From the NCBI GenBank assembly GCA_903831865.1, contig CAIKZH010000156.1, forward strand, positions 867-64,866: a DNA stretch of 64,000 nucleotides, read 5' to 3'. The notes under the pieces were generated by a model. That model searched no databases. It worked only from the letters and a program-made list of their open reading frames with translations, and had not been told where the DNA came from. Of the stretch, positions 5,423-63,998 are shown one piece after another. Both the position numbers and the translations under genes were made by a program. Position 1 is the stretch's first letter. Each line of letters starts with the position of its first letter. Origin of the DNA: an uncultured Coriobacteriia bacterium (GTDB lineage: Bacteria > Actinomycetota > Coriobacteriia > Anaerosomatales > PALSA-660).

Positions 5423-5438
5423 GTTCCCCCCGAGTGGC

Positions 5439-7109: not shown

Positions 7110-7235
7110 TCAGGTCAGTTTGGGCAAGGCTCACCGCGGAGCCGTCCGGGACTCGAACGCGACCCAAGTTCCTGCAGTCCGCCGATGGTTGGGCGGGTCC
7201 TGACCTTGACCTGCCCCCGATCGCTGGTCCACTTC

Positions 7236-8550: not shown

Positions 8551-8781
8551 TGTCCCGCCTCGTGCGCATCGTGGCGAGAACGGCTGTGTGACCGCGCGAA
8601 CGATCGCAGGCGGAGGCGTCCGGCGCTCTCGATGTCAGGCCCCTGTGCGTATACTCTCCTCAGCAACTTGCCGCCATCGAGGGCGGCACGCGGGATTTGA
8701 AGAGCAGCTTGCAGCCGCGTAACCAACTGCTAAAGCGCCACGGGTGCACCCGTGGCACGCCTCTTCCGAAAGGAGAGGGCC

Positions 8782-9405: not shown

Positions 9406-10706
9406 AGCGACGCACCTTCACCCTGCTCGATAGCATGCCTGTGCAGGAGCGCGACCGCGTCCTCGAGGCGCTGGCGAGCGAGGGCCCGCAGCTTTCCGAG
9501 CTGCTGCTCGAAATTGCGCTGCGTGCCCGAAAGGCGGGCAGGTCTGATCTGGCCTACGACCTCTACCACGAGGTGCTGTCGCAAGAGGGTGCGCGTCACC
9601 GTCGCAGCGGGCGGCTTGTGGCGGCGGCCTATCGCGCTCTATACGAGATCGCCATCCAGAACAAGGACCACAAGCAGGCCCTTCGCTACGCGGGCCTCAT
9701 GGGCGAGACCACAAGTGATGGCCGTACGCGCCGCGCCGCGCGGCGCATCGTCGAGAGACTGCAGCGCCTGTGCGAGGAGCCGACCTCTCATGGGATCGCC
9801 CACACCGCTGCCGACGAGGTCCTGTTGCGAGGAGGCGAGCCGCCGGGATACGTCGGCAACGCGCTTGTCGAGCTGCAGCCGCAGCAGCCTGAGCTGCGCC
9901 TTTGTGACGTGGGCGGCCTGGCCGCAGCCAAGCGGGCGATCCATCGCTACGGCATTCTTCCCATGCAGGACCCATCACTCGCAGAGCACTTCGGCATGCG
10001 AGCGGGCGGCGGCATCCTGCTATACGGACCTCCGGGGTGCGGCAAGACGCTGCTCGCCCAAGCTGCCGCCGGCGAGATGGGCGTGCCGCTTCTCGTAGTC
10101 AAGAACAGCGAGGTGCTGCATCCGCTGTTCGGAATGGCGGAGCGCAATGTCTCGCGCGCGTTCGAGGTGGCGCGCGCCAGCGCGCCCTGTGTGCTGATGT
10201 TCGACGAGATCGACGGCATCGTGCCGCCGCGAACCCGTGACTCGCACGCCGAGCACCGCAGCGTCGTGAGTGCCTTTCTTGTCGAGATGGACGGCACCGA
10301 GCGAAACGACGGGGTCCTCGTGGTCGCGACGACCAACGCGCCCGAGCTGGTCGACGGCGCACTGAAGCGCCCGGGCCGTTTCAGCCGAGAGATCCTTGTG
10401 GGACGTCCTGACCCTGCCGCTCGTGAGGCGATCTGGCGACTGAGGCTCGCCGGCCACCCCTTCGCCGAGGACATCGACCTGGCGCAGCTCGTGGAGCTGT
10501 CCGAGGGGCTGACGGGAGCAGACATCGCCGGTGCGGTGCTGGATGCGGTGGAGGCCGCTTGGGTGCAGAGCGCCGAGGAGAAGGCCGTCCGCGAACCGGG
10601 CATGCTGGACTTGCTCATCGGCCTGCAGCGCGCACGAACCGAAGGCCGCGCCAAGAACCGCATCGACGCGATCATCTCCGAGCGGCTGGGAAGGGAGCTG
10701 GAGTAG
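9402..10706 (+). CDS. AAA+ ATPase (classic Cdc48/FtsH/SpoVK-type AAA module) with helical N-terminal domain
   Basis: Walker A GPPGCGKT. Walker B VLMFDEID. Second region of homology TTNAPELVDGALKRPGRF. Translationally coupled to the zinc-ribbon gene. Confidence 0.85.
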   Translation: MKRRTFTLLDSMPVQERDRVLEALASEGPQLSELLLEIALRARKAGRSDLAYDLYHEVLSQEGARHRRSGRLVAAAYRALYEIAIQNKDHKQALRYAGLMGETTSDGRTRRAARRIVERLQRLCEEPTSHGIAHTAADEVLLRGGEPPGYVGNALVELQPQQPELRLCDVGGLAAAKRAIHRYGILPMQDPSLAEHFGMRAGGGILLYGPPGCGKTLLAQAAAGEMGVPLLVVKNSEVLHPLFGMAERNVSRAFEVARASAPCVLMFDEIDGIVPPRTRDSHAEHRSVVSAFLVEMDGTERNDGVLVVATTNAPELVDGALKRPGRFSREILVGRPDPAAREAIWRLRLAGHPFAEDIDLAQLVELSEGLTGADIAGAVLDAVEAAWVQSAEEKAVREPGMLDLLIGLQRARTEGRAKNRIDAIISERLGRELE

Positions 10707-10866
10707 AGGTACGTTCGCGTCACCGCCGCAAGACCGGCATCGGGCGCTGCGGGGATCGCGGAAGTGCCTCCCCTTCGGACGCGAGGGCCAGTAGCCGCGG
10801 AGCCCGTCTCGCAGCGACCGCTAGGCCAGTCGTGTCACAGCGAAGTGAGTATCTCCTGCGATCAGC

Positions 10867-12126
10867 TCAGTCGATCGCCGCCAGCGCTTGCTTCGCGTCC
10901 TCGATGTGGTCGCGCAGAATCTCCACCTGACGCTCCAGATCCTTGCGCGCAATGTCCATCTCCGCAACGATCTTGCGGCCGGTGTTCTCGATCGTCTGAC
11001 CCCAAGTTCGCACGTCGTCGGTCTTCTCAGCACGCTTGGCCACCGACTCGATCGCCTTCTCCATCGCGTCGAAGTCGACATCGGTCGTGGGGAGACTCGC
11101 ACGCTTGCCCTCGAAGACAAGGGCCTTCGCAAGCGTGATGGCAGCGTCCAGCCACAGGTCGGTCGAGGGGTCGTCGGCGTCCCACACGACGACGATGTCT
11201 CGCCCGCAGCGCCGAAGGGTCTCAACGCCGGCGGGTGCAGTACGCGCCGAGAAGATGAACACACCGACCTGCGCGCCGCGGTTTCTCCGACCCTTCTCGA
11301 TCTCCTCGAGGGCGCCGGCGAGGGTGTAGCTGCGGTCCTCCTTCGCCTCGAAGACGATCTTCTCGCCCCCGCAGGCACTGTCGGAGGAGAGCTCCATGAC
11401 GCAGTCACCAACCTTGCAGTTCTTGATGACGCCGGTGGTGGCGCCCGTGGCCGAGGCGATGTCGCCCGCACTCGACGCTTGGTTGATGACGTACTCGACC
11501 ACCGCGTCTTCGAACGCCAGCCCGTGTGTCGTCCCCCGCGCTTCGGCGTCCTTGCGCACCGCGATCTCAAGAAGTGTCTTCTCGACTTGCTCCCGGAACT
11601 CGGCGTTCGCCTTCTCGTGTTCGTCGAGTGTGCCGTTGAGCTGGCGCAGCAGTCTAGAGAGTCCCGAGTTCTCGTCGTCGAGGGAGAACTCCTTGCGCAG
11701 CGTGTCCTGCGAGTCGCGTACGTGCGCGACGAGCCGGGAGAGCGGGGAGCTAGCGTCGTCGAGGCTGAACGCGCCGAGGATCTGCTGGCCATTCTTGCTC
11801 AGGTCGGCATCGATCGCCTCGCGCAGCTGCGCGACCAAGCCGTCGGCCTGCTTGGGATCAAGGGTCTTCATGATCCGGCTCTCGGGCCCGACCATCGCGG
11901 TCATGGCGTCGGTGACCTCGCGCTCGATTTCGTTGGTAAGCTGTTTGCCCTCGTCCTTGATCGCCTGGCGGTCGATGAACCCCGATGCCTGTCGCAGGGC
12001 CAGCACCCCTATGCGCAGCGCGGTCGCCGCCTTCGTTGGACGCTCTGCATCCTCGAACTCGCTCAGCCAGGCGAGGACCTCAGGGTCGTCGATGGTCAGG
12101 GTAATCTCCATCGGCTCATTCGACAT
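10867..12126 (-). CDS. Coiled-coil protein with PD-(D/E)xK-like nuclease core (hypothetical)
   Basis: 419 aa. Long charged helical regions flank VGDCVMEL...IVFEAKED (a D...ExK motif) followed by GVFIFSA. No named family recognised with certainty. Confidence 0.65.
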   Translation of the reverse strand: MSNEPMEITLTIDDPEVLAWLSEFEDAERPTKAATALRIGVLALRQASGFIDRQAIKDEGKQLTNEIEREVTDAMTAMVGPESRIMKTLDPKQADGLVAQLREAIDADLSKNGQQILGAFSLDDASSPLSRLVAHVRDSQDTLRKEFSLDDENSGLSRLLRQLNGTLDEHEKANAEFREQVEKTLLEIAVRKDAEARGTTHGLAFEDAVVEYVINQASSAGDIASATGATTGVIKNCKVGDCVMELSSDSACGGEKIVFEAKEDRSYTLAGALEEIEKGRRNRGAQVGVFIFSARTAPAGVETLRRCGRDIVVVWDADDPSTDLWLDAAITLAKALVFEGKRASLPTTDVDFDAMEKAIESVAKRAEKTDDVRTWGQTIENTGRKIVAEMDIARKDLERQVEILRDHIEDAKQALAAID

Positions 12127-12399
12127 GGCTTCTCTCCTCTCGTGAATCCCTGCTCCTCCGGATCATGGACCTCGCCGCCGACCGCCATCGAGGACCCTGT
12201 AGTCCGGGCCACAATTCGCTCGAACATGAGTCCATGTCCGAGCAGCGTGCCCATCATAGTCGGCAGCGCGCCACGCAGGCGTCGGCCCCGCCCCAACCGC
12301 GAGCGCAGATTCACGCCCCAGGGACCCGAACCCACTTCGACGGAACAGGACCGTGCGCGCGTCAGTCGTTCCGCTGCGACGGCCTCGCCCTCTCGATCA

Positions 12400-34070: not shown

Positions 34071-35207
34071 CTACTCGCTTCGCGTGCCGACACTGACTCG
34101 ATTACGGCCTGCCGCCTTGGCGGCATACATCGCCCGATCAGCCGCGGCGATCAGCGCGTCTCCGGTCCGACCATCGCGGGGGAACGTCGCGACACCGAAC
34201 GAGGCGGTCACGGCGATGCTCGAAAGCCCGTGGGCGATGGGAGCGGCGGCCATCGTGCTGCGCAGTTCCTCGGCGCGCTCGACGGCTTGCTGCTCAGCCA
34301 TGCCCGGCATGACCAGCAGAAACTCCTCGCCCCCGTAGCGGCAGTAGATGTCGCTCCCGCGCGCATGCCGTCTCATCAGGTCGCCGAATACCCGGAGCAC
34401 CTCGTCGCCGGTCAGATGTCCAAAGCGGTCGTTGACCGCTTTGAAGTGGTCGAGGTCCCCCATGATCACACTCACGGGATACCCTTCGCGTTCTGCCAGG
34501 ATCAGCTCGCGCACGAGTGTTTCCTCGAGGTAGCGGCGATTGTAGAGGCCGGTCAGCGCATCATGTATGGACTCTTCGCGGAGCCTCTCTTGCAGAGCAT
34601 GCATCTCGCGCTCCGTGCGGGTTCGATCGGTCACATCCATCACGAGGCTGATCAGCGCGCGCCGGCCGCCGATCTCCATGGTGTTGCCATGAACCTCCAC
34701 ATCGATGACATCACCGTTCTTTCGCAGGCCATGAAACGTGTACTCGACTCGCGCCGCTTCGCCGCTCAGACGCTTCCGAGCGTTCTCGGCCACCAGGGGC
34801 CTGTCGCTCTCGATCGCGGTGTCCATCGGACCCAGCTCGATGATCTCCGCAGCGCTGTAGCCGAAGATCTCGTTGAACTTGAGGTTGGTGTAGGTGAACT
34901 TCCCTTCGCCCACTATGGCGATCCCGACCAGAGACTGACTCACCACGCCGTGGAATTGCTCTTCGGACTCACGAAGAGCGCGGGTGATCTTCTCGTTGTC
35001 ACGGAGCGCGGCCTCCAGCTCCGCGGTGCGTCCGCGCACCTGTTCCTCAAGCATCACCGAACTCTGGAACAAGCTGAAGTCGGACCCCTTCGCATTCGTG
35101 CTGCGCTCGGCGCGGTTCATGAGCGCCTGCACGACCTTGTTCAGCCTCGCGATCTCGGCCGACAAGTCTGCGCAACCGCCTGCTTCAGGCAGGGCGATCT
35201 CAGGCAT
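34071..35207 (-). CDS. Coiled-coil + PAS + GGDEF diguanylate cyclase
   Basis: ORF 34071..35360 trimmed to ATG 35207, which overlaps the upstream stop (ATGCCTGA). PAS block followed by DALTGLYNRR...RYGGEEFLLVMP. Confidence 0.85.
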   Translation of the reverse strand: MPEIALPEAGGCADLSAEIARLNKVVQALMNRAERSTNAKGSDFSLFQSSVMLEEQVRGRTAELEAALRDNEKITRALRESEEQFHGVVSQSLVGIAIVGEGKFTYTNLKFNEIFGYSAAEIIELGPMDTAIESDRPLVAENARKRLSGEAARVEYTFHGLRKNGDVIDVEVHGNTMEIGGRRALISLVMDVTDRTRTEREMHALQERLREESIHDALTGLYNRRYLEETLVRELILAEREGYPVSVIMGDLDHFKAVNDRFGHLTGDEVLRVFGDLMRRHARGSDIYCRYGGEEFLLVMPGMAEQQAVERAEELRSTMAAAPIAHGLSSIAVTASFGVATFPRDGRTGDALIAAADRAMYAAKAAGRNRVSVGTRSE

Positions 35208-36372
35208 GCGTGGCCTCCGTGGCAGGGCGGCCGATGGCGATACCGGTGAACGTCTGATTGACATGGACGCCGCCGAACTGCTCTCCGTAGGTGTCGAACC
35301 CGGTGACGTTGTTGTCACGGAACAGCGCCGCGACGTCGCCCCCGAGCCCCTGCTGCTCAATCTCGAGCTTGCGAAGGATGCAGTCGCATCCGATGACCAG
35401 CTGCGGCAGACCTATCGCGGCACGGATCTCGGTGAACGCATGGTCGAGGTTCTTGACCAGGTCCAGCCCGCGCGCCACCCGCAAGACCAGGCCCTCTTCA
35501 ATGGCGCAGAAGAACGTCAGGCTCCCGTCGGGGTCTGACTTCTGAATCGAGCGAACGTAGTTCTCGCCATCGATCAACACCACCACCGGCGATCCCGCGA
35601 AACTGGTGGGATCCAAGTCCTGAACCTGCGAGCCGACCAGCCGGGCATACGCTTCGGCCGCGGGGTAGCCGTCAAGCTCCATGACACGGCGATGCTGGGC
35701 ATCGGCAGCGGTAACGACCACCCGCTGTTCGGTGGGAACGAAGTGCTGGGTCTTGAAGACCCGAAAGGGCACTTCCGTGGTGACAAGCGTCAAGACGGCG
35801 CTGTCGTCGTGGAAGCAGCCATCGCAATACACCAAGGTCCTTCCGAAATCCAGCCCATCGCCTGCGGAGCCGCCGACCAGGGGGAAGCTGCCCAGAGCGC
35901 CTTGCAGGACACGTGTGACGGGCTCCTCGCGCACCGACAGACCGTCGATCAGCAGGAGCGCGAATGTGTTGTCGGGCTTGCTCCCCGGTCTCGAGCTTTC
36001 CAGCTCCTGCAGCAGGCCCTGCACGAGCGACTGGCCCGAAGCGTCCTCGAACTGCTGCAGGTGATCGATCACCCCGCATGCCGCACCGAAACTGCCTGCG
36101 GGAAAGCTTGCTCCCGAGATGCTGTGCTCGTTGCAGCCACCTGGTCCGATTTCACCGGCCGTCGTGCAACCAACGACGCGCACACCGGCGAACTCGCGAC
36201 CCATCTCGTCGGCGAGCACGTCCAGGTCGTACTGACTGGAGCAGAAGAAGACGACCAGCGCCATCTCCGGCTGAGCCACCGCAGCGCGAAACTCGCGCAC
36301 GGCTTGCCTCGGGTCCATCGCACAAGACTGTCCTCGGCGTATGTTGGTCTCTGCGTCCATTTCGTGCCCCAT
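35200..36372 (-). CDS. FIST-domain signal-transduction protein (FIST_N + FIST_C)
   Basis: ORF 35200..36510 trimmed to ATG 36372 (alternative 36360). LVVFFCSSQYD...VVGCTTAGEI...GGSAGD...VTGFDTYGE pattern. Confidence 0.75.
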   Translation of the reverse strand: MGHEMDAETNIRRGQSCAMDPRQAVREFRAAVAQPEMALVVFFCSSQYDLDVLADEMGREFAGVRVVGCTTAGEIGPGGCNEHSISGASFPAGSFGAACGVIDHLQQFEDASGQSLVQGLLQELESSRPGSKPDNTFALLLIDGLSVREEPVTRVLQGALGSFPLVGGSAGDGLDFGRTLVYCDGCFHDDSAVLTLVTTEVPFRVFKTQHFVPTEQRVVVTAADAQHRRVMELDGYPAAEAYARLVGSQVQDLDPTSFAGSPVVVLIDGENYVRSIQKSDPDGSLTFFCAIEEGLVLRVARGLDLVKNLDHAFTEIRAAIGLPQLVIGCDCILRKLEIEQQGLGGDVAALFRDNNVTGFDTYGEQFGGVHVNQTFTGIAIGRPATEATHA

Positions 36373-36409
36373 TCTCGGAGTCCGGCCGGGCGGCCGGGTA
36401 CCCTCGCGG

Positions 36410-39151
36410 CTAGGCAGGCGCGTCGAGGCTGGCAGCGCCGGGGGCCGACAGCAGGCCTCCCGCGCCTGGCTTCGCCGGCAGTGTCGCGCGCGCTGGAGCG
36501 GACCCGCCATTCGCAGCGTCCGGTTGCAGGACGGAGCGCTCCGTGTACTCCCCCAGCGGGAGCGGCCGCCCCACTTCGTAGCCCTGCGCGAAGTCGGCTC
36601 CGAGGCCCTCTATCGTGTCCAGGAGGCCGGGGTTCTCGACCCACTCGGCCACGGTGCGGATGTCCAGTCCCCTGCACATCTCGATGATGGCCCGCACAAA
36701 GTGCATGTCCGGCGAGTCCTCGTTCAGCCCCTTCACGAGAGCGCCATCGATCTTGAGGAAGTCGATCGGAAGGTGCTTGAGGTAGTAGAAGGACGACGCG
36801 CCGGAGCCGAAATCGTCGAGCGAGAAGCGGCAGCCGATCTCCTTGAGGGCGCCTATGAACTTCTGCGCCCGGGCCATGTCGGCGATCGCCGTGGTCTCCG
36901 TGATCTCGATCACGAGTCTGGAGGGCGAGACACGACGGTTGCGCAGCTCCTCGCGGATGATGTCGAGCAGCTCGGGGTCAGAGAACGCCGCACCGGACAC
37001 GTTGATGGCGAAGACCGTGTCACGCCCGGCGGCCCGCTCCTCGCCCAGCATCCGGATCCCACGCCGGGCGACCCATCGGTCGATGTCGCGTATGGCCCCG
37101 AGTCGCTCGGCAGTGGGGATGAACTCGGCCGGCAGGATGATCTCGCCGTTCTCCGCGATCATGCGGAGCAGCAGTTCATACACGGGAACGGCATTGTCAG
37201 CCAGACGCCGCAGGGGCTGCGCATAGAGCTCGAACCGGTCAGCGCGCAGAGCGCGCCTTATCTCCTCGGCCGTCTCTATCTGCTCGGTCATCCGGCTGCG
37301 CCACAGGTCGTCCTTGGTGTACGCGAAGAAGCGGTCGCCCCCCGTCGTCTTGGCCTCGTACATCGCGAGGTCGGCGCAGGCCATCAGCTCATCGCACGTG
37401 GTCCCGTGGTCAGGGAATCGTGCGATGCCGATGCTGGCGCTCACGCTCACCACATGTCCGGCGGCCGCGAATGACGCTTCGGAGAGCATCTCGAGCAACC
37501 TGGACGCGGTCGCCTCAGCCTGCTCCTCGTCAGCGTGCGGCACGAGCATCCCGAACTCGTCTCCGCCCACCCGAGCCACGGTGCAGTAGTCGCGCGAGTT
37601 CGCCTTGATCATCCGGGAGAAGGCGACCAGGAGATCATCTCCTGCCGCGTGGCCCAGCGAATCGTTCACGTTCTTGAAGTTGTCGAGGTCGAACCACAGC
37701 AGCGCCCCGCTTCCACCCAGGCGCTCCACCTCAGACAGCTCTCTCTCGAGCTCCGCTTCGAACTGCCTGCGGTTCGCCAGGCCCGTGAGGGGGTCATGGG
37801 CCGCGAGATAGCTGAGCTGACTGTGCGAACGGTCAAGCTCCAACTGGATCGACAACACCTGCGCGAGCCCATCGGCCAGCGCGACCGACGTCCTGTCGAG
37901 CTTGCGCGGCGAGGTGAAGTAGAACTCGAGTGTGCCGACGGCCCGTCCTCCGACCCTCAGGGGAACGATCACCCCGGCGTTCGAGGAGCACTGCGGGTTG
38001 GAGCAACCGATCTCGCCTCGGCTGCGCAGGACCTCGCGAGCGTCGTTCCTGATGGCGTCGCGCGTCGCGGTCATGCGTATCGGGCTGCCGGCGGGGTGGC
38101 GGTCGATGCCGACGCCAGCGATGCCTACGACCTGCGTCGTGTCGCACAGCACCACGGTATCGGCGGCGCTGTGTTCCAGGATGAGCCGACAGACATCCTC
38201 CGCGGCTCCTGGATTGAGGCCGTCGCGCAGGCGGTCCATCGAGGCACTGGCCGTATCCAGGATCATTTGCGACTGAAGGGCGCGCAGATGGTCGGGAAGC
38301 ACCATGGTGTCGAGCGTCAGCCCCAGACCGACGACGAGGACGAGCCCGAAGATCCCCAGCGCCGTGCCCCCGCTGAGCACAGCCGTACGGGTCAACGTGA
38401 ACGCCGTGCGAGGCTGCGTGACCCCGGCAACAAGGGCCGGCCGGCCGTCCAGCCCGTGCACGGTCGCGTAGGCGGTCAGCGTGTGTGGAGCCAGCGCAGT
38501 GCCCAGGCGACGGTCCCCTTGGCCAGCAGGCCGCAGGGCCAGCGGCAACTGCGTGAGCTTGCTGATGGCCGCAACACGACTTCGTGACAGAAGGTAGCCG
38601 GTCACCAACAGCCCGTCGTAGGGCGCGGAGCCACTGCTGGAGGAGATGGGCTGAACTGCGAGAAGCAGCGAGCCTGCCGGGAGGTGCAGGGCACCGGAGG
38701 CCGCGACGTTCGGGTCTGTCAGGTGCAGCTTCGGAAGGTGCGACGCCAGGTAGGAACCGAGTCCGGCCGGCAGAGGAACACCGCGGCCCGAGACCGGGTC
38801 GACCGCCTTGGAGAACACGATCCTGCCGCTCTTGTCGGCGAAGACCATGAAGTCGACGTCGAGCACGGCCAGGCTGGCATCAGTGAGGTTGTTGCGCACG
38901 TACGCCTGGTTCCGATCCTGCATGAACCGGTACGTGTCGTCCCAAAGTGCCCAGTCGCCTGTGACGAGCGTGAGCTGCTCGGCGCCGTGGTTGATTTGAG
39001 ACGCGACGCGACTCGCGTCCGCCGCGACGTCGCGCTCGTCGATCTGGTTGGAGACCCGGTCCCCCAGCAGGATGCCGCCAGTCTGCAGCGCCGCCCATAG
39101 CACAACGGCGGTCGTCAGCAGTAGCAGAAACGTCCTTGTCCGAACTCCCAC
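36410..39151 (-). CDS. Membrane sensor CHASE4 + LytS-type GAF + GGDEF + EAL protein
   Basis: 913 aa. N-terminal TM helix. CHASE4-like DWALWDDTYRFMQD. GAF-like ...GTLEFYF. GGDEF (VARVGGDEFGML). EAL domain (YELLLRM...EITE...DDFG). Confidence 0.85.
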   Translation of the reverse strand: MGVRTRTFLLLLTTAVVLWAALQTGGILLGDRVSNQIDERDVAADASRVASQINHGAEQLTLVTGDWALWDDTYRFMQDRNQAYVRNNLTDASLAVLDVDFMVFADKSGRIVFSKAVDPVSGRGVPLPAGLGSYLASHLPKLHLTDPNVAASGALHLPAGSLLLAVQPISSSSGSAPYDGLLVTGYLLSRSRVAAISKLTQLPLALRPAGQGDRRLGTALAPHTLTAYATVHGLDGRPALVAGVTQPRTAFTLTRTAVLSGGTALGIFGLVLVVGLGLTLDTMVLPDHLRALQSQMILDTASASMDRLRDGLNPGAAEDVCRLILEHSAADTVVLCDTTQVVGIAGVGIDRHPAGSPIRMTATRDAIRNDAREVLRSRGEIGCSNPQCSSNAGVIVPLRVGGRAVGTLEFYFTSPRKLDRTSVALADGLAQVLSIQLELDRSHSQLSYLAAHDPLTGLANRRQFEAELERELSEVERLGGSGALLWFDLDNFKNVNDSLGHAAGDDLLVAFSRMIKANSRDYCTVARVGGDEFGMLVPHADEEQAEATASRLLEMLSEASFAAAGHVVSVSASIGIARFPDHGTTCDELMACADLAMYEAKTTGGDRFFAYTKDDLWRSRMTEQIETAEEIRRALRADRFELYAQPLRRLADNAVPVYELLLRMIAENGEIILPAEFIPTAERLGAIRDIDRWVARRGIRMLGEERAAGRDTVFAINVSGAAFSDPELLDIIREELRNRRVSPSRLVIEITETTAIADMARAQKFIGALKEIGCRFSLDDFGSGASSFYYLKHLPIDFLKIDGALVKGLNEDSPDMHFVRAIIEMCRGLDIRTVAEWVENPGLLDTIEGLGADFAQGYEVGRPLPLGEYTERSVLQPDAANGGSAPARATLPAKPGAGGLLSAPGAASLDAPA

Positions 39152-41155: not shown

Positions 41156-42694
41156 ATGAAGCGCCGTATCGTGCCTATCCTCATCGTGGCGTTGTGCGTC
41201 GCGATCCTGCCGGCGGGCGGTGCGCCCGCGATCGCGTCAGCCGCCCCGCATGCCGCCGGCCTTGCGGCAAGCGCATGGCCGATGCTGGGCCACGACCCGA
41301 CCCACTCCTTCACCAGCTCAGTCGCGGGACCCGCGACGCCGCTGAAGAAGTGGGAATCCCCACTCGGGCAGCTCTACAGCCCCTACACCGCGTCTCCCGT
41401 GATCGGGGCGGATGGCACGATCTACATCGCCACCTACTCTCGGCTGTACGCGATCAACCCGGACGGCACACAGAAGTGGCACTGGGTCTCCAAAGACGGA
41501 CTGTACGGCTCGCCCGCGATCGACTCCACCGGCACTGTCTACCTCGGTGGCACGAGTGGTGAGCTCTACGCCGTGAACCCCGACGGCACTCTGAAGTGGA
41601 AGTTCGACACGGGACTGGCAGTGGTGGCCTCCCCGGTGATCGGGACCGACGGCACGATCTATGTCGGCGCCGAGGACGGGCACTTCTACGCCATCAACCC
41701 GGACGGCACCAAGAAGTGGGACTACCTCACTGCCGGCGCCATCGCCTCCTCGGCCGCGATCGACACGACCGGCACGATCTACTTCGGCAGCGGGGACGGC
41801 AAGTTCCATGCGTTGAATCCCGACGGCAGCCAGAAGTGGGTCTTCGCCGCAGCCGGCTCCGCGCAGGGTGCCCCGATACTTGGCAGCGACGGCTCCGTCT
41901 ACTTCGCCGCGACCGACGGCTACTTCTACGCTCTGAACTCGGCCGGGGCGCTGCGGTGGGAAGCGATCGCGGGAAGCGGCTACTACGGCTACTACCCCGG
42001 CCCGTACTACTACCTTGGGACAGCAGCCGGTGCCGTGTCCGCGCTCGCCACAGCGACTCCCTCCATGCTCCTCGTGCCGAACAAGGGCGGCACGAAGCTG
42101 TTGTCGCTGTCTGCCGCCGGCGCCCTGAACTGGTCGTTCGCAGCCACCGATACCGAGTTCTACAACGTGATGCCGCCCGCCATCGACTCGAACGGTGTCG
42201 CCTACACCGGCTCCCTCGGCACCGGCAGGCTCTTCGCGATCAACCCTGACGGCACCGAGAAGTGGCACGCGACACCCGAGCCCCCGGTCTACTATGACTA
42301 CTACTATCCCGTGTCCTCGCCAGTGATCGGTGCGGACGGCACGCTGTACCTGACCGCGCGGGGCGAACTGGTCGCCATCGGCGGCAGCGCCACGTCGGTC
42401 TCGATCCAGGCCAGCAGGAGCACCATCTTCCTGCACAAGTCCGTCGCCTTCTCCGGGTCGGTCACGCCCGGAGTCGCGGGGGACCGTTTCGCGGTCGACG
42501 TGATGCTGCCCGGCAGCCGCAGTTGGACCTACCTCAGCACGCGACTCGCGAGTTCAGTCATCGGCGGTCACGCGAACTGGTCGTACAGCTACACACCGAG
42601 GAAGCGCGGCGCCTACCACTTCCGCGTGAGATTCCTCGGCGATGCGACCGGCGCGATGTCGGTGTCGTCATCGGTGAGAGTTCGAGTGCAGTAG
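41156..42694 (+). CDS. Secreted PQQ-like (BamB-type) beta-propeller repeat protein with C-terminal Ig-like domain
   Basis: Signal peptide. At least seven repeats of G..YA.NPDGT.KW......(S)SPVIG.DGTIY. Confidence 0.8.
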   Translation: MKRRIVPILIVALCVAILPAGGAPAIASAAPHAAGLAASAWPMLGHDPTHSFTSSVAGPATPLKKWESPLGQLYSPYTASPVIGADGTIYIATYSRLYAINPDGTQKWHWVSKDGLYGSPAIDSTGTVYLGGTSGELYAVNPDGTLKWKFDTGLAVVASPVIGTDGTIYVGAEDGHFYAINPDGTKKWDYLTAGAIASSAAIDTTGTIYFGSGDGKFHALNPDGSQKWVFAAAGSAQGAPILGSDGSVYFAATDGYFYALNSAGALRWEAIAGSGYYGYYPGPYYYLGTAAGAVSALATATPSMLLVPNKGGTKLLSLSAAGALNWSFAATDTEFYNVMPPAIDSNGVAYTGSLGTGRLFAINPDGTEKWHATPEPPVYYDYYYPVSSPVIGADGTLYLTARGELVAIGGSATSVSIQASRSTIFLHKSVAFSGSVTPGVAGDRFAVDVMLPGSRSWTYLSTRLASSVIGGHANWSYSYTPRKRGAYHFRVRFLGDATGAMSVSSSVRVRVQ

Positions 42695-44163: not shown

Positions 44164-45693
44164 GTGTGCGGGGTGAGGCCGCGTGCAAGCGGCGCGGCTC
44201 TTGCAGCAGTGTCGCTGGCGTTGATGGCCGGACTGCTGCCCGAAGGGCGAGTGAGCGCACTGAGCGACGACAGAGGATTCCCGCGCGGCGGCGCGCGACG
44301 GTCCGACCGCCATGAGGCGAAGCGGGCGCCTGCGAAGCCGCCGCGACCCCTGCGGTCGCCCGTCGATCCCGCAGCACCGCGATCCGAATCTCGGCGCGCA
44401 TGGACCACCTACGACCCCGGGGCCAGACGCCGTCGGCGACTGGGCAGGCTCGCGCTCGTCGGTCTCGTCGTCGCGCTGCTGGCCGTCATCGGCGGAGGTG
44501 CGGCCTTCGCCTGGTACCGCACCATCGACCGCAACATCCACCCGGTCACCGGCTCGCTCGCCAACCTTCAGTCGGCTCTCTCGGTAGCACCGCCGCCGGG
44601 TCAGCCCTTCTACATGGTGATCATGGGCGTGGACACGAGAGCCACCGACACCTCGCTCGATCACTCGGACACGCTGATGGTCGCCTACGTCGATGCCGCC
44701 CGCAAACGCATCACCACGATGTCCATCCCGCGCGACACCCGAGTGACCATCCCGGGCCACGGCGTGCAGAAGATCAACGCGGCCATGTCGATCGGTGGGC
44801 CTCAACTGACGATCGAGACGGTCAGACAACTCACCGGCCTGCCGATCTCGCACTGGGCCTACATCGACTTCAGCGGGTTCAAAACCATCGTGGACGCCGT
44901 GGGCGGCGTCGAACTCTACGTGCCCTACACCATCAACGACCTGGAGGCGTCGGGTAACCATCCGAGCGCCAGGCTGGTCAAGAAGGGGCTGAGGGTGCTC
45001 GACGGTGCGCATGCCCTCACGTTCGTGCGCGCCCGCCATCAGTTCGCGAACCAGGACTACACCCGCATGAAGGACCAGCAGATCTTCATGAAGGCACTCG
45101 CGAAGAAGGTCCTGTCGGTCAATGTCATCAACATGCCGGCGCTCGCCAACAGCATCTCGCAAAACGTGCACACCGACCTGAGCATCCCGCAGATCGTCGG
45201 GCTGGCCCTCAACTTCCGAGGCATGAACGACAAGATGCTGCAGTCGATCACGATGCCGAGCACCCCGCAGACGATCGGCGGGGTGGCCTACGTGATCGCG
45301 GACCCCGCGGGCCTCGCGGCCGATGCGGCCAAGATGCAGAGAGGCGAGCTGTTCGTCGCGGTGCCCGCGAGTGTCACGGCGAACCCGACCGCGGCGTCCG
45401 TCGCTCCTGCCCCCAAGACCATCACGGTCTCGGTGCGCAACGGGGCCGGCGTGAGCGGGATCGCCAAGAAGGTGGCGGCGGCACTGGCGAAGCAGGGCTT
45501 CGTCATCAAGGAGGTGGGCAACATCGGCTCCTCTCCCTTCGCCACCTCACTGGTCATCTATCGCTCGAGTGCCGACAAGGCCAAGGCGGATGTGGTCGCC
45601 AAGGCGTTGCACATCACGAACATCCAGGCTTCGAGCCGCTACACGTTCTCGGGCGAAGTGCTCGTGGTGATCGGCAAGGACTACCGACCGTAG
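44164..45693 (+). CDS. LytR-CpsA-Psr (LCP) family cell-envelope phosphotransferase with LytR_C domain
   Basis: TM anchor. MGVDTR...SDT.M......ITTMSIPRDT...KIN.A...GGP...I..V..LTG.PI.H...IDF.GF. C-terminal ITVSVRNGAGVSGIA. Exact start uncertain. Confidence 0.85.
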   Translation: MCGVRPRASGAALAAVSLALMAGLLPEGRVSALSDDRGFPRGGARRSDRHEAKRAPAKPPRPLRSPVDPAAPRSESRRAWTTYDPGARRRRRLGRLALVGLVVALLAVIGGGAAFAWYRTIDRNIHPVTGSLANLQSALSVAPPPGQPFYMVIMGVDTRATDTSLDHSDTLMVAYVDAARKRITTMSIPRDTRVTIPGHGVQKINAAMSIGGPQLTIETVRQLTGLPISHWAYIDFSGFKTIVDAVGGVELYVPYTINDLEASGNHPSARLVKKGLRVLDGAHALTFVRARHQFANQDYTRMKDQQIFMKALAKKVLSVNVINMPALANSISQNVHTDLSIPQIVGLALNFRGMNDKMLQSITMPSTPQTIGGVAYVIADPAGLAADAAKMQRGELFVAVPASVTANPTAASVAPAPKTITVSVRNGAGVSGIAKKVAAALAKQGFVIKEVGNIGSSPFATSLVIYRSSADKAKADVVAKALHITNIQASSRYTFSGEVLVVIGKDYRP

Positions 45694-45721
45694 CCGCAGC
45701 GCTTCCGGCGGGCGCCGGCGA

Positions 45722-45903
45722 CCTCCATACGTTCTCTACATCCGGGACACGCGGGCGCCACGCGCCCCGGACATGATGTGGATACGGCCGATGTGATCGC
45801 CGTTCATATCTCCCCCCTCCCCGCAGGTCCTATCCGGGACGCCCCTCCCGAAGGACCACCCAAAGCGGCGGGACCCGCCCCGGTCCCGCCGCTTCCCCCT
45901 TTG
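45722..45903. repeat. Copy 2 of the three-copy structured element
   Basis: See 2277-2442. Contains the perfect hairpin GCGGCGGGACC[CGCCCC]GGTCCCGCCGC (45865-45892) followed by TTCCCCCTTTG. Confidence 0.8.
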
Positions 45904-46000
45904 TGCCGTCAGGCGTCCCGCCAGCCAGGAAGTCCGCCAGGCCTGCTTTCAAGTCCGCGCACGACGGTGCATGATCGGTGGGTGTCCGAAGGAGGCGCGC

Positions 46001-46474
46001 ATGAGCGACATCGAGCAGGTACGGGATCTTCTGGCACGGCAGCTGGACTGGGGGGCGGCGCACGTCGGGTATGTGCGCGCTGTGGCCGACTTCCCCGCGG
46101 AGCTTCGCGCTGAAGTGCCGCGCGGACTCACCCACTCGGGCTGGCAGGTCGTCGAGCACATCCGCCTGGCGCAGGCGGACATCCTCGACTTCTGCGTGAA
46201 CCCCGACTACGTCGCCCGACCGTGGCCTGAGAGCTACTGGCCCGGCGTCGCACCGCGAGACGACGCGGAATGGGAAGCCAGCGTCGAGGACTACCAGCGG
46301 GACCTGAGGACGTTGCAGGAAATGGCTCGCGACGAGAAGACCGACCTCTTCGCCCCGATCGCCTGGGGCGACGGCCAGACGATCCTGCGCGAGCTGTTAC
46401 TGGTGGCCGACCATGGGGCCTACCACGTGGGACAGCTCGTCGCCATGCGACAGACGCTCGGCTGCTGGCACTGA
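46001..46474 (+). CDS. DinB-family (DinB_2) metal-dependent protein
   Basis: ORF 45971..46474 trimmed to ATG 46001 (GGAGG upstream). HIRLAQADIL...VADHGAYHVGQLV is the His-triad helix-bundle pattern. Confidence 0.8.
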   Translation: MSDIEQVRDLLARQLDWGAAHVGYVRAVADFPAELRAEVPRGLTHSGWQVVEHIRLAQADILDFCVNPDYVARPWPESYWPGVAPRDDAEWEASVEDYQRDLRTLQEMARDEKTDLFAPIAWGDGQTILRELLLVADHGAYHVGQLVAMRQTLGCWH

Positions 46475-46497
46475 TGAGTGAAGCTGGCGAGTCGGCT

Positions 46498-46725
46498 TCA
46501 GAGATACCTGGGAACCGGCTCGCTCCACGGCTGTTCGGCGATGGGCAGACGAGCAAGACCCTCTTCGGTGAGCAGAAGCTGCGTTCCTGAAGAGGCGTCG
46601 AGCCGGAAGTAGAGGACGCCGTCCATCCTCCCGCCCTTCCATGTCTCCGGCACCTCGCCGCCGGCGAGCTTCAACAAGAAGAACGCTCGCGCGGTTCCCT
46701 GGACATCATCGGGCATCCTGCCCAT
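46498..46725 (-). CDS. Small conserved hypothetical protein (paralog of 1987..2283)
   Basis: 75 aa. GAAGGGGG/GGAGGG upstream. Shares the TARAFFLLKL...GG..DG.LYF...LTEEGL block with the 1987..2283 product. Confidence 0.5.
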   Translation of the reverse strand: MGRMPDDVQGTARAFFLLKLAGGEVPETWKGGRMDGVLYFRLDASSGTQLLLTEEGLARLPIAEQPWSEPVPRYL

Positions 46726-46886
46726 GCCCTCCGCCCCCTTCCGCGTGCTGACCCGGATCCTTCCTGAGCGCGCGCCCCGGGTCGTGATGCTCCATGCATG
46801 CGTATCGTAGACCCAGGTCGAGGCCTCGGGCAGCCATCACTCTGCCGAAAGGGGGGGCTTGCAGCCGGCCGACGCGAGACGGTGGA

Positions 46887-47068
46887 CTCCACACGTTCTC
46901 TACATTCGGAACACGATGCCGCCACCGGGGCCGGGCATGATGTGAGTGCGGCCATGCGATCGCCGTTCATATCTCCTCCCCCTCCCCACAGGTCCTATCC
47001 GGGACGCCCCTCCCGAAGGACCACCCAAAGCGGCGGGACCCGCCCCGGTCCCGCCGCTTCCCCGTTTC
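46887..47068. repeat. Copy 3 of the three-copy structured element
   Basis: Reads identically to copy 2 over 75 nt (caggtcc...gcttcccc), including hairpin 47030-47057. One nt shorter than copies 1 and 2 inside the mini-ORF. Confidence 0.8.
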
Positions 47069-47218
47069 TTGGAGGCCCCTCCAACCGGGTAACGCACGTC
47101 CACCGTGCTCCTCACGGGAGCATGGCCAGCGTCAAGACCCCGGCTCGCCGGGATGGCCGCAGCACGCGGAGGGCGTCGAGACCCTGATCCACGCGTCGCG
47201 CTCGATCAGACGGCCTCC

Positions 47219-51403: not shown

Positions 51404-53362
51404 TTGAGGATATGGGCCTGGGCGGCCGCACTACTGCTCACCACTGCGCTCGCAGTGTGGGGGATGCTCGCCGGCGTCACGTCCGTGGCGCTGGTCGCCG
51501 TCTTCGTTCTGCTGGGTCTGGCCGTGGTCCCGATCCTGGGGCTGCGGTTCGACAGGGCGGCCGCCGAGGTCGCGATACCCGACAAGACCCGCGCACAGCA
51601 GTCGAAGTCGATCCTGGACATCGCCCGGGAGTCGATGAGCTGGATCGGCTCCGGGCTCACCCCGGAGTCGGCCGCCGCCGTGTGCGCCCTCATCCAGCGT
51701 GACACCGGCGCTGCCGCGGTGGCGATCACGGACCGCGAGAAGGTGCTGGGGTTCCAGGGTGTGGCCGCCGACCATCACAAGGTGGGCGGTCCCATCGTCA
51801 CCCAGGCCACCAGGGACGCCATCGCCCGCAACGAGCGCCGGATCATGGTGGATCGCGACGAGATCGGCTGTCCCGACCCCAAGTGCCCTCTTCGCGCGGC
51901 CATCGTCGTCCCGCTCACCGCGGGTGATCAGGCGATCGGCACCCTGAAGTTCTACTACACCGACCCGAAGGATCTGCACGAGACGGCGATCGTGCTGGCC
52001 GAGGGCCTCGCGCACCTGTTCTCGACGCAGCTCGAACTCGACAGCTCGAGAAGAGAGCTCTCGTTCCTGGCGGAACACGACCCGTTGACCGGGCTCAGCA
52101 ACCGCCGAAGGTTCGAGACGGAACTCTCGAAGGAGCTCTCGGAACAGCGAAGGCTCGGCGGCGCCGGTGCGGTGCTCTGGTTCGACCTGGACAACTTCAA
52201 GGACATCAACGACAGCCTGGGGCATGCGGCCGGCGACCAGCTGCTCGCCACCATCGCCGAGGTCCTGCGCGAGACCAGCCGCAGCTACGACGTCGTCGCG
52301 CGGCTGGGGGGCGACGAGTTCGGCGTGCTCATCCCGCACGCGGACCGCGCCGAGGCCACCCAGGCCGCCGCGCGCCTTCGGCGCGAGCTTGCCTCCCACG
52401 CGTTCCACGTCGTGGGCCAAGAGGTGCACGTCACCGCGAGCATGGGGATGGTGTGCTACCCCGAGCACGGGCAGTGCCGCGAGGATCTGCTGGCCCGTGC
52501 CGACCTCGCGATGTACGAGGCCAAGGGCAAGGGCGGCGACGAGCTCATCATCTACGAGCCCGGCGAAGCCGGACACGACCAGATGTCGAAGAACGCCGAG
52601 TGGGCGAGCGCGATCTCCTCGGCGCTACGCGACGATCGCTTCTGCCTGGACGCGCAGCCGATCCGCAGCCTCGTCGGAGGCACGGACGTCGCGTACGAGA
52701 TGCTCCTGCGGATGGTGGGGGAAGACGGGCAGCTGGTGGACGGCGACGAGTTCCTCCCCGTCGCCGAGAGGACTGGGCTCATCGGAGGCATCGACCGCTG
52801 GGTGGCGCGAAGAGCCATACAGCTTCTGGCCGAGGAGAAGGCGCAGGCACGGGACACCGTGCTCGCCATCAACGTCTCTCAGCACGCGTTCGCCGACCAC
52901 GCTCTGCTCGACATCATGCGTGTAGAGTTCGCTTCCACCGCGGTGGCCCCGAGCAGGCTCATCGTCGAGATCTCAGAGTCGGCGGTCGTGGCGGACATCA
53001 CGGGAGCGGCGGAGTTCGTCCGCTCCCTCCGCGAGCTGGGTTGCCGGTTCGCGCTGGACCATGTCGGCTCCGGCAGTTCGCTCTTCTTCTACCTCGAGCA
53101 CCTTGGAGCCGACTTCCTCAAGTTCGACAGCGACCTGATCAAGGGCCTGGAACGCGACGGTGGTCCCACCGACGCGGCGTTGATCCGGGCCCTGGTGGGG
53201 ATGTGCAAAGCCATGCGGATCCCCACGGTCGCTGAGTCGGTCGGGAACGCGAACCTCCTGCATGTGGTCGCCGCCCAGGGCGTCGACTACGTGCAGGGCG
53301 AAGAGGTCGGGCCGGCGGCGTCGCTCGGCAGCCAGGCCGCAAGCGGACCGATCGTTGCCTGA
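51404..53362 (+). CDS. Membrane LytS-type GAF + GGDEF + EAL protein (paralog of the C-terminal two-thirds of 36410..39151)
   Basis: Two N-terminal TM helices. GAF-like ...IGTLKFYY. GGDEF (VARLGGDEFGVL). EAL (YEMLLRM...EISE...DHVG). TTG start at 51404 is uncertain. Confidence 0.85.
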   Translation: MRIWAWAAALLLTTALAVWGMLAGVTSVALVAVFVLLGLAVVPILGLRFDRAAAEVAIPDKTRAQQSKSILDIARESMSWIGSGLTPESAAAVCALIQRDTGAAAVAITDREKVLGFQGVAADHHKVGGPIVTQATRDAIARNERRIMVDRDEIGCPDPKCPLRAAIVVPLTAGDQAIGTLKFYYTDPKDLHETAIVLAEGLAHLFSTQLELDSSRRELSFLAEHDPLTGLSNRRRFETELSKELSEQRRLGGAGAVLWFDLDNFKDINDSLGHAAGDQLLATIAEVLRETSRSYDVVARLGGDEFGVLIPHADRAEATQAAARLRRELASHAFHVVGQEVHVTASMGMVCYPEHGQCREDLLARADLAMYEAKGKGGDELIIYEPGEAGHDQMSKNAEWASAISSALRDDRFCLDAQPIRSLVGGTDVAYEMLLRMVGEDGQLVDGDEFLPVAERTGLIGGIDRWVARRAIQLLAEEKAQARDTVLAINVSQHAFADHALLDIMRVEFASTAVAPSRLIVEISESAVVADITGAAEFVRSLRELGCRFALDHVGSGSSLFFYLEHLGADFLKFDSDLIKGLERDGGPTDAALIRALVGMCKAMRIPTVAESVGNANLLHVVAAQGVDYVQGEEVGPAASLGSQAASGPIVA

Positions 53363-62051: not shown

Positions 62052-63998
62052 TCAGTCCCCCAACGGGTCCTCGGCGGCGATCGATCCAGAATGCGAACGG
62101 GCTGTGTACTCGGCCCGTGACGCAGGGGTCGGCATCTTGGTCTTCAGATACTCGGAGAGCGCGCGGTCGGTACAGAAGACGTAGCAGCCCTTCATGCCCC
62201 TCGTCATGAGTACGCGGTAGGTGTTGCGAATTACCTCGTCGGCGATGCGCCGAGCGCGCTCGGGATCGGTCTTCGCGAGAGACTTGATGCCCTTCAGCGA
62301 GGCGTCGCTCTTCGCGCGCTTGGTGTAGTCCGTGACAATTTGGCCGTGCTCGAAGCGCAGATCGTCGCCAACGATCACCCCGACGTAGTCGAACTCCAGG
62401 CCTTGGGCCGTGTGCACGCAGCCGACTTCCTGGATCGAACCTTCGTCGATCGCCCACGTGCCCGTGGCATCCAGATTCCAACTCCTCGAGAACGCCCACT
62501 CTGGCAGGACAATATCGTGGGCGCTTGGATTGCCTCTGCTGCCGGTCGGCCACTCCCAGCAGTAGCCCGCGACCACGCGCGACCTGTTGTTCGCGGCGTT
62601 CTTGCGGGCGACGGCGGCGAACAACTCGTTGGGATCATCGAATACGCGGAAGTCGTAGTCGAGATCGATGACCGGCTCCTCGACGGGCTTGATACCGAGC
62701 ACATCGTCAAGCCAGTCGAGGTACCCGTTCGATCCGTTGCAGCGGAACTGGGAGAGCAGTTCGTCCTCCACCACCTTCGCACCGGCAGTCAGAGCAATGG
62801 CCCGGATGCCGTCGACGCTACCGGCGTCCTTGATCGTCACGCGTTGCGCATCATCGATGAAGAAGACCGCGAACCTGGCGGCTGCAACGATCTCCTTGAT
62901 CTGGTTCTCACCCAGATTGCCGAAGAGACCCGACCTCTCGTTGAGCCTATGAGCCTCGTCAACGACGATCGCGTCGAGCGGAGCACCCGTGTATTCATAG
63001 AAGGTCCCAGGCCCGCGGAAGAGTCCGCTGATGTACGCCCTCGAACGGTCACCAGCGAGCAGCTTCTTGGAGTAGACGTTGCGCGGCGCGCTGTTCTTGG
63101 ACACGTACTGGCCCACCATGTCCTCCGCGGTGAGCCGAACAAGCAGATTGATAGCGATGACAGACTTCCCTGTACCGGGACCACCCCGCACGATGAAGAC
63201 GCACTTCTCACCGGTCACCCGCGCCTCGCGGGCGAGTTGCAGCGCAGTCTCGAAGACGACCTTCTGGTCGTCGATCATCACGAACTCCTCGTTGCCCTTG
63301 AGCATGCTGGTGAGCGCGTCTTGAAGTGACTTGGACGGACGCAGGCGACCGGACTCGATTGCGTAGAGAACCTTTCCGTCATCCGCCTGCTTGATGGACT
63401 TGCAGATGAAGTCGCGCAGCTTCAGCACGTCGCCACTGCAGAAGGCCGGGGCCTTCTCGAGATAGTCGAGGTAAGCCGGGTCGAGCAGAGGGTCGTAACC
63501 TTCGCTGACCTCGTAGTTGTGCAGGTAGGCGCACGGCCGGAGTTCGATGTGCGCGTCGCGGACGCCCTCGTTGTAGTCCTCGATCATGCGAGCGTAGGAC
63601 CACGCTTGGTACGAGGGATGCGGGACATCGCGATGCGCGCCTGCGAGCCAAGTCCGAACCACGCCATCCTTCAGCGGCAGCGCCTCGATTGCATCCCACT
63701 GCTTGAGCTCGATGATGACGGCCGCGTCGTGCTCAAGCGTGGACCGTCCGGTGAGCAAGAAGTCGATCCGGCTCGACGTGTAGGGGACCTGGAACTCGAT
63801 AGCCACGCCGCAGCCGCCAGGAATGTCCGCCGTGTTGAGCACCTTGTACATGTACTCGAGCGAGTTCTTCCAGGAAGTCACCTCTCGGGGATTCGCCCGG
63901 TGGAGAAGGCGCTCGAACGATCGCGTGACTTCGTCCACGATGACGTCGCGATCGACATCGTCCATGAACTTGGTCTTCGTGGCCTGGTAGACCAGCAT
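62052..63998 (-). CDS. DUF2075-family protein (N-terminal PD-(D/E)xK-like module + SF1-type P-loop NTPase)
   Basis: 648 aa. ATG at 63998 lies 2 nt from the window edge. SRIDFLLTG...VIIELKQW (D...ExK). Walker A GGPGTGKS. VVDEAHRL. Confidence 0.8.
   Translation of the reverse strand: MLVYQATKTKFMDDVDRDVIVDEVTRSFERLLHRANPREVTSWKNSLEYMYKVLNTADIPGGCGVAIEFQVPYTSSRIDFLLTGRSTLEHDAAVIIELKQWDAIEALPLKDGVVRTWLAGAHRDVPHPSYQAWSYARMIEDYNEGVRDAHIELRPCAYLHNYEVSEGYDPLLDPAYLDYLEKAPAFCSGDVLKLRDFICKSIKQADDGKVLYAIESGRLRPSKSLQDALTSMLKGNEEFVMIDDQKVVFETALQLAREARVTGEKCVFIVRGGPGTGKSVIAINLLVRLTAEDMVGQYVSKNSAPRNVYSKKLLAGDRSRAYISGLFRGPGTFYEYTGAPLDAIVVDEAHRLNERSGLFGNLGENQIKEIVAAARFAVFFIDDAQRVTIKDAGSVDGIRAIALTAGAKVVEDELLSQFRCNGSNGYLDWLDDVLGIKPVEEPVIDLDYDFRVFDDPNELFAAVARKNAANNRSRVVAGYCWEWPTGSRGNPSAHDIVLPEWAFSRSWNLDATGTWAIDEGSIQEVGCVHTAQGLEFDYVGVIVGDDLRFEHGQIVTDYTKRAKSDASLKGIKSLAKTDPERARRIADEVIRNTYRVLMTRGMKGCYVFCTDRALSEYLKTKMPTPASRAEYTARSHSGSIAAEDPLGD

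Follow-up and report, generated by a model that had tools for sequence, protein, structure and literature searches.

A dispersed, modular and structured intergenic element in an uncultured Coriobacteriia bacterium, possibly akin to the BOX, ERIC and REP repeats

Introduction

BOX (pneumococcal), ERIC (enterobacterial) and REP/BIME elements are short (40–200 nt), non-coding intergenic repeats that often lie just after stop codons. They are modular, form strong hairpins, are co-transcribed with their neighbours, are restricted to particular lineages and break short-read assemblies; BOX and ERIC are also found without an obvious transposase. The element described here occurs in a 64-kb stretch of DNA from an uncultured Coriobacteriia bacterium (the whole of this stretch is called the window throughout). 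Like those repeats, it is intergenic, modular, hairpin-rich, lineage-restricted and disruptive to assemblies, but it has no sequence similarity to any of them. It lacks the overall palindrome of ERIC, and the REP arrangement of a GTAG 5' of a 20–40-nt palindrome, with a RAYT gene, was not seen in the window: the GTAG on the minus strand lies 3', not 5', of the variable palindrome, and a RAYT gene was not seen there. Also unlike BOX, ERIC and REP, it has a very low known copy number, contains two hypervariable segments of fixed length and recurs beside one family of small genes.

Two kinds of C-rich RNA also invite comparison. The 6C RNA (RF01066; PMC6486639) shares with the element two GC hairpins with C-rich loops, and one proposal made in that source is that these loops pair with G-rich sites in mRNAs. 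It is about 75 nt long, as against about 185 nt for the full-length element; its loops contain six or more C, whereas those of the element read CGCCCC; and it is a single conserved locus, whereas the element is multi-copy and patchily distributed. The CcsR or cuckoo RNAs (RF02791) are multi-copy sRNAs with C-rich anti-Shine-Dalgarno motifs in their hairpin loops. They are like the element in that they occupy varied genomic 'nests', are linked to a small protein gene and can derive from 3' UTRs. However, they are alphaproteobacterial, while the element comes from an actinobacterial lineage, and their small gene lies upstream on the same strand, whereas here the small gene is divergent from the C-rich strand. 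Finally, the element is likewise small, structured and non-autonomous-looking when set beside a MITE or a palindrome-associated element derived from IS200/IS605; its copies in the window share one orientation, and it shows presence/absence polymorphism.

Results

Three copies of the element in the window

The preliminary description of this DNA had reported three copies of one sequence in the same orientation. This was borne out: all three lie on the + strand, at 2277–2443 (copy 1), 45722–45903 (copy 2) and 46887–47068 (copy 3). A profile of the element matched only these sites in the 64-kb window (nhmmer, E about 3e-47 to 2e-56), and the 28-nt block CAGGTCCTWTCCGGGACGCCCCTCCCGA occurred three times, compared with 0.00 expected from shuffles. 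The two results together exclude chance. The element is the sole non-coding repeat family within the window.

Copy 2 is a full element that begins 28 nt 3' of the stop codon (45693) of an LCP gene. Copy 3, also full, lies 161 nt from the start of a divergent small gene and 213 nt before a MarR gene. These two copies are identical over 76 nt (45823–45898 = 46988–47063), including hairpins S3 and S4; the identity had been given as 75 nt, and the 11-bp hairpin GCGGCGGGACC/GGTCCCGCCGC does fall within it. Copy 1 keeps the first ~130 nt of the element. Its shared core (2277–2408, + strand) runs from block A through the 31-nt variable segment, block B, the H2 loop, block C and the C-tract into the 5' part of S3, where it is cut off and joined to another hairpin. 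As first described, it diverges after CCCCTCCCGA and carries its own hairpin GACGCC/GGCGTT (2416–2435) followed by TCATTATG; this private 3' end (2410–2443, + strand) has a U-rich tail on the + strand. Two details of the early account were corrected. The first shared block is present but reads CA(T/C)ACGTTC and not C(A/C)ACGTTC, and the hairpin said to precede a T run is there but the T run is weak (TTCCCCCTTTG): a strict scan, requiring at least 5 T in 8, detected no terminator.

It may be noted that the motif of the substitute 3' hairpin of copy 1, GCCGACGCCGAACCCGAGGCGTTTCA (2410–2438 of the window, 5663–5691 of sequence L007), recurs at 2846–2874 of L007. The second site, a 25/29-nt direct repeat 2.8 kb away, lies just past the left edge of the window and abuts an IS3-type rve fragment. 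The two repeats bracket the copy-1 core, its small gene and five other small genes, and the stretch so bracketed may be a small integrated unit.

Anatomy and block-wise conservation

Four independent full copies (copies 1, 2 and 3, and that on L024, from another metagenome) were aligned together with strain variants. On the + strand the parts follow each other in the order block A, variable segment, block B, H2 loop, block C, C-tract, S3 and S4. The mean pairwise identity is 96% for block A (CTCCAYACGTTCTCTACAT), 92% for block B (CATGATGTGGATACGGCC) and 100% for block C (GCCGTTCATATCTCC). Blocks B and C pair with each other as helix H2, GATGTGGATACGGC / GCCGTTCATATC (45775–45810, + strand), which encloses a loop of 9–10 nt that is near-random (41%). 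The variable segment (45741–45771, + strand, in copy 2) is GC-rich, has a mean pairwise identity of 70%, and is 31 nt long in all five known versions of the element. The C-rich tract TCCCCCCTCCCCG (45811–45823, + strand; 83%) is single-stranded and anti-Shine-Dalgarno-like; read on the minus strand, it gives a strong Shine-Dalgarno sequence ahead of ATGAACGGC. It is followed by hairpin S3, GGTCCT..CGGGA[CGCCCC]TCCCG..AGGACC (45826–45857, + strand; 98%), and by hairpin S4, GCGGCGGGACC[CGCCCC]GGTCCCGCCGC with the tail TTCCCCCTTTG (45865–45903, + strand), whose hexaloop is the same as that of S3. From the end of S3 through ACCCAAA and S4, with its loop CGCCCC, to the tail TTCCYC, the mean pairwise identity of copies 2, 3 and L024 is 99%. 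S4 looks like a bidirectional terminator.

The left edge of the element is sharp at CTCCA in all five versions and the right edge, CGCTTCCYC, in three; the flanks left of CTCCA are unalignable between copies. The 31-nt segment (70%) and the H2 loop (41%), both close to saturation, stand beside blocks that are 92–100% identical. Such a contrast between neighbouring parts points to constraint acting on the blocks, and not simply to a recent origin of the copies; the proteins encoded beside copies 1 and 3, for their part, share only 40% identity.

Two ideas about the variable parts were dropped. The first, that they act as guides, failed because the 31-nt segment and the H2 loop showed no copy-specific identity or complementarity to the copy's own flanks or to sequence elsewhere in the window. 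The second, that the hairpin of the 31-nt segment keeps one register, failed as well: the registers differ between copies and the hairpin of copy 3 is weak, so that no clean covarying stem emerged.

Occurrence beyond the window

No match to the element was obtained with blastn in plasmids or phages. Two pattern scans of the GTDB representative genomes gave no match and 11 chance matches, respectively, none of the latter with the element, and two scans of viral contigs gave no match. Among JGI metagenome contigs there were 30 scan matches, of which only L024 was genuine; here a glyoxalase gene converges on the element, and ~10 nt separate its stop codon from the S4 end. Spurious ORFs that can be translated from the element were also used to look for further copies; of the 423 candidates sharing words with them, none scored.

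Outside the source species, only two instances of the element were found, a further context on L024 and a partial, diverged copy on L010, and its known copy number is low. At least five contexts are known: copy 2 follows LCP, copies 1 and 3 and L010 adjoin small genes, and L024 has the convergent glyoxalase gene next to it. For three of four contexts, those with LCP, the RM gene and glyoxalase, the distance between an edge of the element and a stop codon is 10–30 nt. Metagenome contigs from the source species break off within the element, which is the behaviour expected of a repeat.

L010 comes from another species and has a small gene whose product is 78% identical to that of the copy-1 gene, with the partial copy beside it. 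Blocks A and B are conserved, the variable segment is a different one and again 31 nt long, and the spacer is unalignable. The element part is 75% identical to copy 1, which equals the value for third codon positions of the adjacent gene (75%); the L010 comparison alone is therefore no proof of selection. Two of the three homologues of the small gene on other contigs, L011 (87% protein identity) and L012, do not have the element. It is also absent downstream of all five LCP orthologues (63–75% identity) in related species, where the LCP flank shows no synteny with that of the window, so that no clean empty site can be defined. Given the small-gene homologues and the LCP orthologues that lack it, the element is patchy and not vertically fixed.

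In a related species, positions 458–515 of L056, upstream of an LCP orthologue, weakly resemble blocks A/B plus the variable segment (18.5 bits, E 1e-5). This stretch is without TTCTCTACATCC and could be a degenerate relic or a chance resemblance.

Comparison with known families and element classes

The element had been placed in no known class and a check against Rfam had been proposed. Rfam 15 gave no match at gathering thresholds over the whole window, and at E<=10 over 45600–47200 it gave sub-threshold noise only; the assignment thus stands. The best of these weak resemblances were to two-hairpin C-rich sRNAs, namely Scr3202 (21.7 bits versus 52) and CcsR1 (15.7 bits versus 65.3). For 6C RNA (RF01066) there was no match on the + strand and only 20.5 bits, versus a gathering threshold of 47, on the minus strand at 47028–47094, in the flank of copy 3. 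The CcsR or cuckoo RNAs are recognised by the CCUCCUCCC loop motif, a match to the model and a site downstream of a DUF1127 gene; here the model score was far below threshold, and the small proteins beside the element had no DUF1127 or other Pfam match.

The hallmarks of mobile elements were looked for as well. Terminal inverted repeats are lacking: CTCCAYACGTTCTC on the left and GGTCCCGCCGCTTCC on the right are not inverse complements of each other. No target-site duplication was found: at copy 2, copy 3 and L024 the flanking sequences have no direct repeat in common. A conserved 4–5-nt target 5' of the left end, of the IS200/IS605 type, is absent, the left flanks ending in GGC, GAC, GGA, AGC and GCA. 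Among the ~40 window ORFs scanned there was no transposase, integrase or recombinase, including TnpA (Y1) and TnpB. When an integron attC site (R'' RYYYAAC, R' GTTRRRY, with IntI) was sought, only GTTCTCT/AGAGAAC at one end was seen, without an inverse partner.

Neighbouring genes

The paralogous minus-strand small genes that had been reported beside two of the three copies are real. One, of 67 aa (1987–2190, minus strand), adjoins the left end of copy 1, and the other, of 75 aa (46498–46725, minus strand), adjoins that of copy 3; their products share 40% amino-acid identity, and the left ends of both copies face the starts of these ~70-aa genes. The family comprises five clusters only, among 5.8 billion proteins. 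It matched no Pfam, NCBIfam, PHROG or PADLOC family, apart from one weak ParC match far under the cut-off, and the AlphaFold model of the small protein (pLDDT 78.6) had no PDB fold match with E<1. A leaderless start of the copy-1-type gene, with TACGAT as the -10 box 6 nt before GTG, was considered and dropped; in L010 and L012 an in-frame ATG overlaps the TACGAT motif.

A DinB-superfamily gene lies at 46001–46474 (+ strand), with both DinB models just under the Pfam gathering cut-off. The nearest named relatives of the LCP protein beside copy 2 are from 'Coriobacteriia bacterium' and 'Actinobacteria bacterium HGW' MAGs (40–47% identity), and unnamed metagenome proteins reach 63–75%; the host accordingly belongs to an uncultured and poorly sampled lineage of Actinomycetota, related to the 'Coriobacteriia bacterium' MAGs.

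The wider surroundings may be described briefly. The region 1–12200 is low in GC3 and has the look of a defence island. It contains a type IIG RM enzyme (2471–5521), an M.Eco57I-like methylase (5439–7109), an IetA-like AAA ATPase (9402–10706) adjoining a HEAT-repeat protein, a phrog_6723 protein (484–954) and several ORFs without a family. At the right edge, 62052–63998 (minus strand) encodes a Schlafen group 3 helicase-domain protein with weak matches to the AbiO, Nhi and PDC-S41 defence models. The 120-nt periodic repeats at 41442–42268 are ordinary coding blade repeats inside a PQQ/beta-propeller gene (41156–42694). Cyclic-di-GMP signalling genes (GGDEF-PAS, FIST, CHASE4-GAF-GGDEF-EAL and GAF-GGDEF-EAL) occupy 34071–39151 and 51404–53362 and are unrelated to the element.

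RNA structure, strand and transcription signals

In the consensus fold (RNAalifold) S3 and S4 were found in all copies and the C-tract was unpaired on the + strand, which agrees with the exposed C-rich tract claimed for it. S4 is a 13-bp hairpin in this fold, with 11 G-C pairs, and the 12 nt that follow have 6–7 U on the + strand and 5 on the minus strand. When the four 3' hairpins were compared, the + strand tail was the U-richer one in each case (6–7 U in 12 nt, versus 2–5 on the minus strand). Two G.U pairs of helix H2 never vary on the + strand, and an A-to-G substitution gives copy 3 one more; read on the minus strand, all of these would be A.C mismatches. The z-scores of single-sequence folds were modest on both strands, -3.7 for the + strand and -2.9 for the minus strand. 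Pairs changed on both sides were 0 of 46 on the + strand and 1 of 54, a doubtful one, on the minus strand, in four independent full copies whose stems are invariant.

No sigma-70-type promoter was detected in or before the element, by scanning and by reading of the flanks. The sole good promoter near the element is that of MarR, and the left flanks of copy 1 and L010 have no TANNNT hexamer. The two features that tell the strands apart, the G.U pairs of H2 and the U-richer tails, lean weakly towards transcription of the element as a + strand RNA. The proposal of a + strand sRNA is thus supported in part: the G.U pairs, the U-rich tails and the unpaired C-tract agree with the strand, whereas the lack of a conserved promoter, the zero count of compensatory pairs and the absence of the element at orthologous sites in related species count against an independent sRNA gene.

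The ribosome-binding region GGAAGGGGGCGGAGGGCAUG of the copy-3 small gene (46721–46760, minus strand) is unusually G-rich and is complementary to the C-tract and to the CGCCCC loops. By duplex energy it is among the ~12 best partners of the C-tract out of roughly 25,600 sequence windows, with a rank of about 11.

A mini-ORF on the minus strand

A mini-ORF consisting of a Shine-Dalgarno sequence, ATG, 23 codons and TAG can be read on the minus strand at 45736–45807. The frame is intact in copy 1, copy 2 and L024, and a 1-nt deletion shifts it in copy 3. The peptides differ at about one-third of their positions, with no excess of synonymous change. Coding potential of the mini-ORF was dropped, as the peptide is not conserved and the frame is broken in copy 3.

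A difference of one gene module

In contig L060 the order is the 3' end of LCP, one hybrid element (left part of copy 2, right flank of copy 3) and MarR. A 1165-bp module that consists of the DinB gene, the small gene and one element copy is missing from it, and the crossover between L060 and the window falls within the 76-nt identical S3–S4 stretch. L060 may be a true population variant, which recombination between the repeats or insertion of a module could have produced, or else the assembly may have collapsed across the 76-nt stretch. Copies of the element can recombine, and this would add or remove gene modules. Both the presence/absence polymorphism and the dispersal of the element lay beyond the reach of the preliminary description.

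Discussion

The element is restricted to one lineage and scattered among unrelated intergenic sites, and is not inherited at fixed loci. Our preferred reading, which we hold tentatively, is that it is a dispersed, modular, structured intergenic repeat, similar in kind to BOX, ERIC and REP, that supplies a strong terminator hairpin and a + strand C-rich, anti-Shine-Dalgarno-like RNA. The reading is favoured by the varied neighbours and orientations of the element, its sharp ends, the lack of a private promoter, its absence at orthologous sites, the assembly breaks and the module polymorphism. A neighbouring transcript that runs into the element would acquire it as an RNA 3'-end module in cis. 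The strong GC hairpin S4 could end transcription from either side, and the + strand would yield a stable RNA with exposed CCUCC, CUCCCCCCUCCCC and two CGCCCC hexaloops, C-rich sequences that could pair with G-rich ribosome-binding sites. The near-invariant blocks would be kept by selection, probably through recognition by a trans-acting protein or through a function of the RNA, while the two variable segments would drift freely. The family is new to the databases searched; its role as a + strand RNA is one that we infer.

Some observations stand against the repeat reading. No mechanism of spread is visible: terminal inverted repeats, a target-site duplication and a flanking target are lacking, as is a transposase or recombinase among the ~40 window ORFs scanned. 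The known copy number is low, and L060 could be a product of assembly. Young mobile repeats normally diverge uniformly, whereas here two segments are near saturation beside invariant blocks. Moreover, members of a single small-gene family adjoin three of the five left ends; a purely selfish repeat would have no need of the functional link at which this hints.

Four other explanations were weighed against this one. It is less likely that the element represents a family of trans-acting + strand sRNAs, transcribed from promoters of their own or released by cleavage of 3' UTRs (copy 2 after LCP), whose C-tract and two CGCCCC loops pair with G-rich Shine-Dalgarno regions and repress translation in the manner of 6C and CcsR, the divergent small gene being target or partner. 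The C-rich sequences exposed in the consensus + strand fold, the identical hexaloops on S3 and S4 and the preference of the G.U pairs for the + strand would fit such RNAs. So would the 3' ends, since both the standard one and the copy-1 substitute are hairpins with U-rich + strand tails, and so would the rank of GGAAGGGGGCGGAGGGCAUG of the copy-3 small gene among the ~12 best C-tract partners and the fact that the best weak Rfam resemblances are to the C-rich sRNAs Scr3202 (21.7 bits) and CcsR1 (15.7 bits). Those Rfam scores are, however, all far under the gathering thresholds. There are no compensatory changes; no conserved promoter is seen, the flanks left of CTCCA being unalignable and those of copy 1 and L010 without TANNNT; and the element is missing at orthologous sites in relatives. 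The minus-strand alternative that had been offered, a conserved 5' leader with a mini-ORF, is mostly contradicted, and we rate it as very improbable. It would have the strong Shine-Dalgarno sequence GGGAGGGGGGAG and ATGAACGGC open a 23-codon regulatory mini-ORF, with alternative pairings of blocks C', B' and A' controlling the downstream small gene. In its favour, none of the four full copies varies in the Shine-Dalgarno sequence or the ATG, the length and stop codon of the mini-ORF are the same in copy 1, copy 2 and L024, and a paralogous small gene lies downstream in copy 1, copy 3 and L010. But the 1-nt deletion shifts the frame in copy 3, about one-third of the peptide differs without synonymous excess, and H2 has A.C mismatches on the minus strand. 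No minus-strand gene follows copy 2 or L060, which face the 3' end of the convergent LCP gene; L011 and L012 carry the small gene without the element; and where the small gene does accompany it, the spacer of 74–161 nt is unalignable. The arrangement at copy 2 and L060 and the lack of the element at L011 and L012 speak equally against a minus-strand riboswitch, which should have a regulated gene downstream of every copy and be present upstream of orthologues.

The module difference bears on an explanation of another sort, in which the element is a cassette-like recombination or attachment site and a circular unit (cargo, small gene and left part of the element) recombines with a resident element in S3–S4 by an unseen recombinase. 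The window and L060 differ by exactly one 1165-bp module bounded by element copies, with the crossover in the 76-nt S3–S4 stretch; the small gene is always at the left end, at three loci; direct repeats of a 29-nt hairpin motif bound the region around copy 1 too; and the invariance of both stem arms fits recognition by a protein. Homologous recombination between two direct repeats explains L060 equally well, however, and L060 may be an assembly artefact. Furthermore, no recombinase was found in the window, the R''/R' core sites of integrons are absent, with GTTCTCT where an integron has GTTRRRY, and no small gene is visible beside copy 2, L060 or L024. We consider this explanation unlikely. 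More unlikely still is its fullest form, that the element is the recognition site of an undescribed cassette-type recombination system of uncultured Coriobacteriia-like Actinomycetota, with modules of cargo, small gene and left element half inserted and excised at the S3–S4 hairpins; there, the hypervariable segments might be module-specific identifiers or programmable RNA segments. The least probable explanation is that the copies are inert, functionless leftovers of segmental duplications. What favours it is that copies 2 and 3 lie just 1.1 kb from each other and match at every base over 76 nt. Yet blocks of 96–100% identity beside segments of 41–70% are unlike neutral decay, the adjacent paralogous proteins are only 40% identical, and L010, the partial copy in a different species, has kept blocks A and B.

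If the dispersed-repeat reading is true, the element would be a new family of dispersed structured intergenic repeats, unrelated in sequence to those described, in a poorly sampled uncultured actinobacterial lineage. It would be one that fragments metagenome assemblies and marks sites of gain and loss of gene modules, and it may bring terminators and anti-Shine-Dalgarno-like RNA into new transcripts. What is unusual about it is the block-wise conservation with two hypervariable segments of fixed length, along with the recurrent pairing with one uncharacterised family of small proteins; these would become important if a dedicated protein or RNA mechanism exists behind them.
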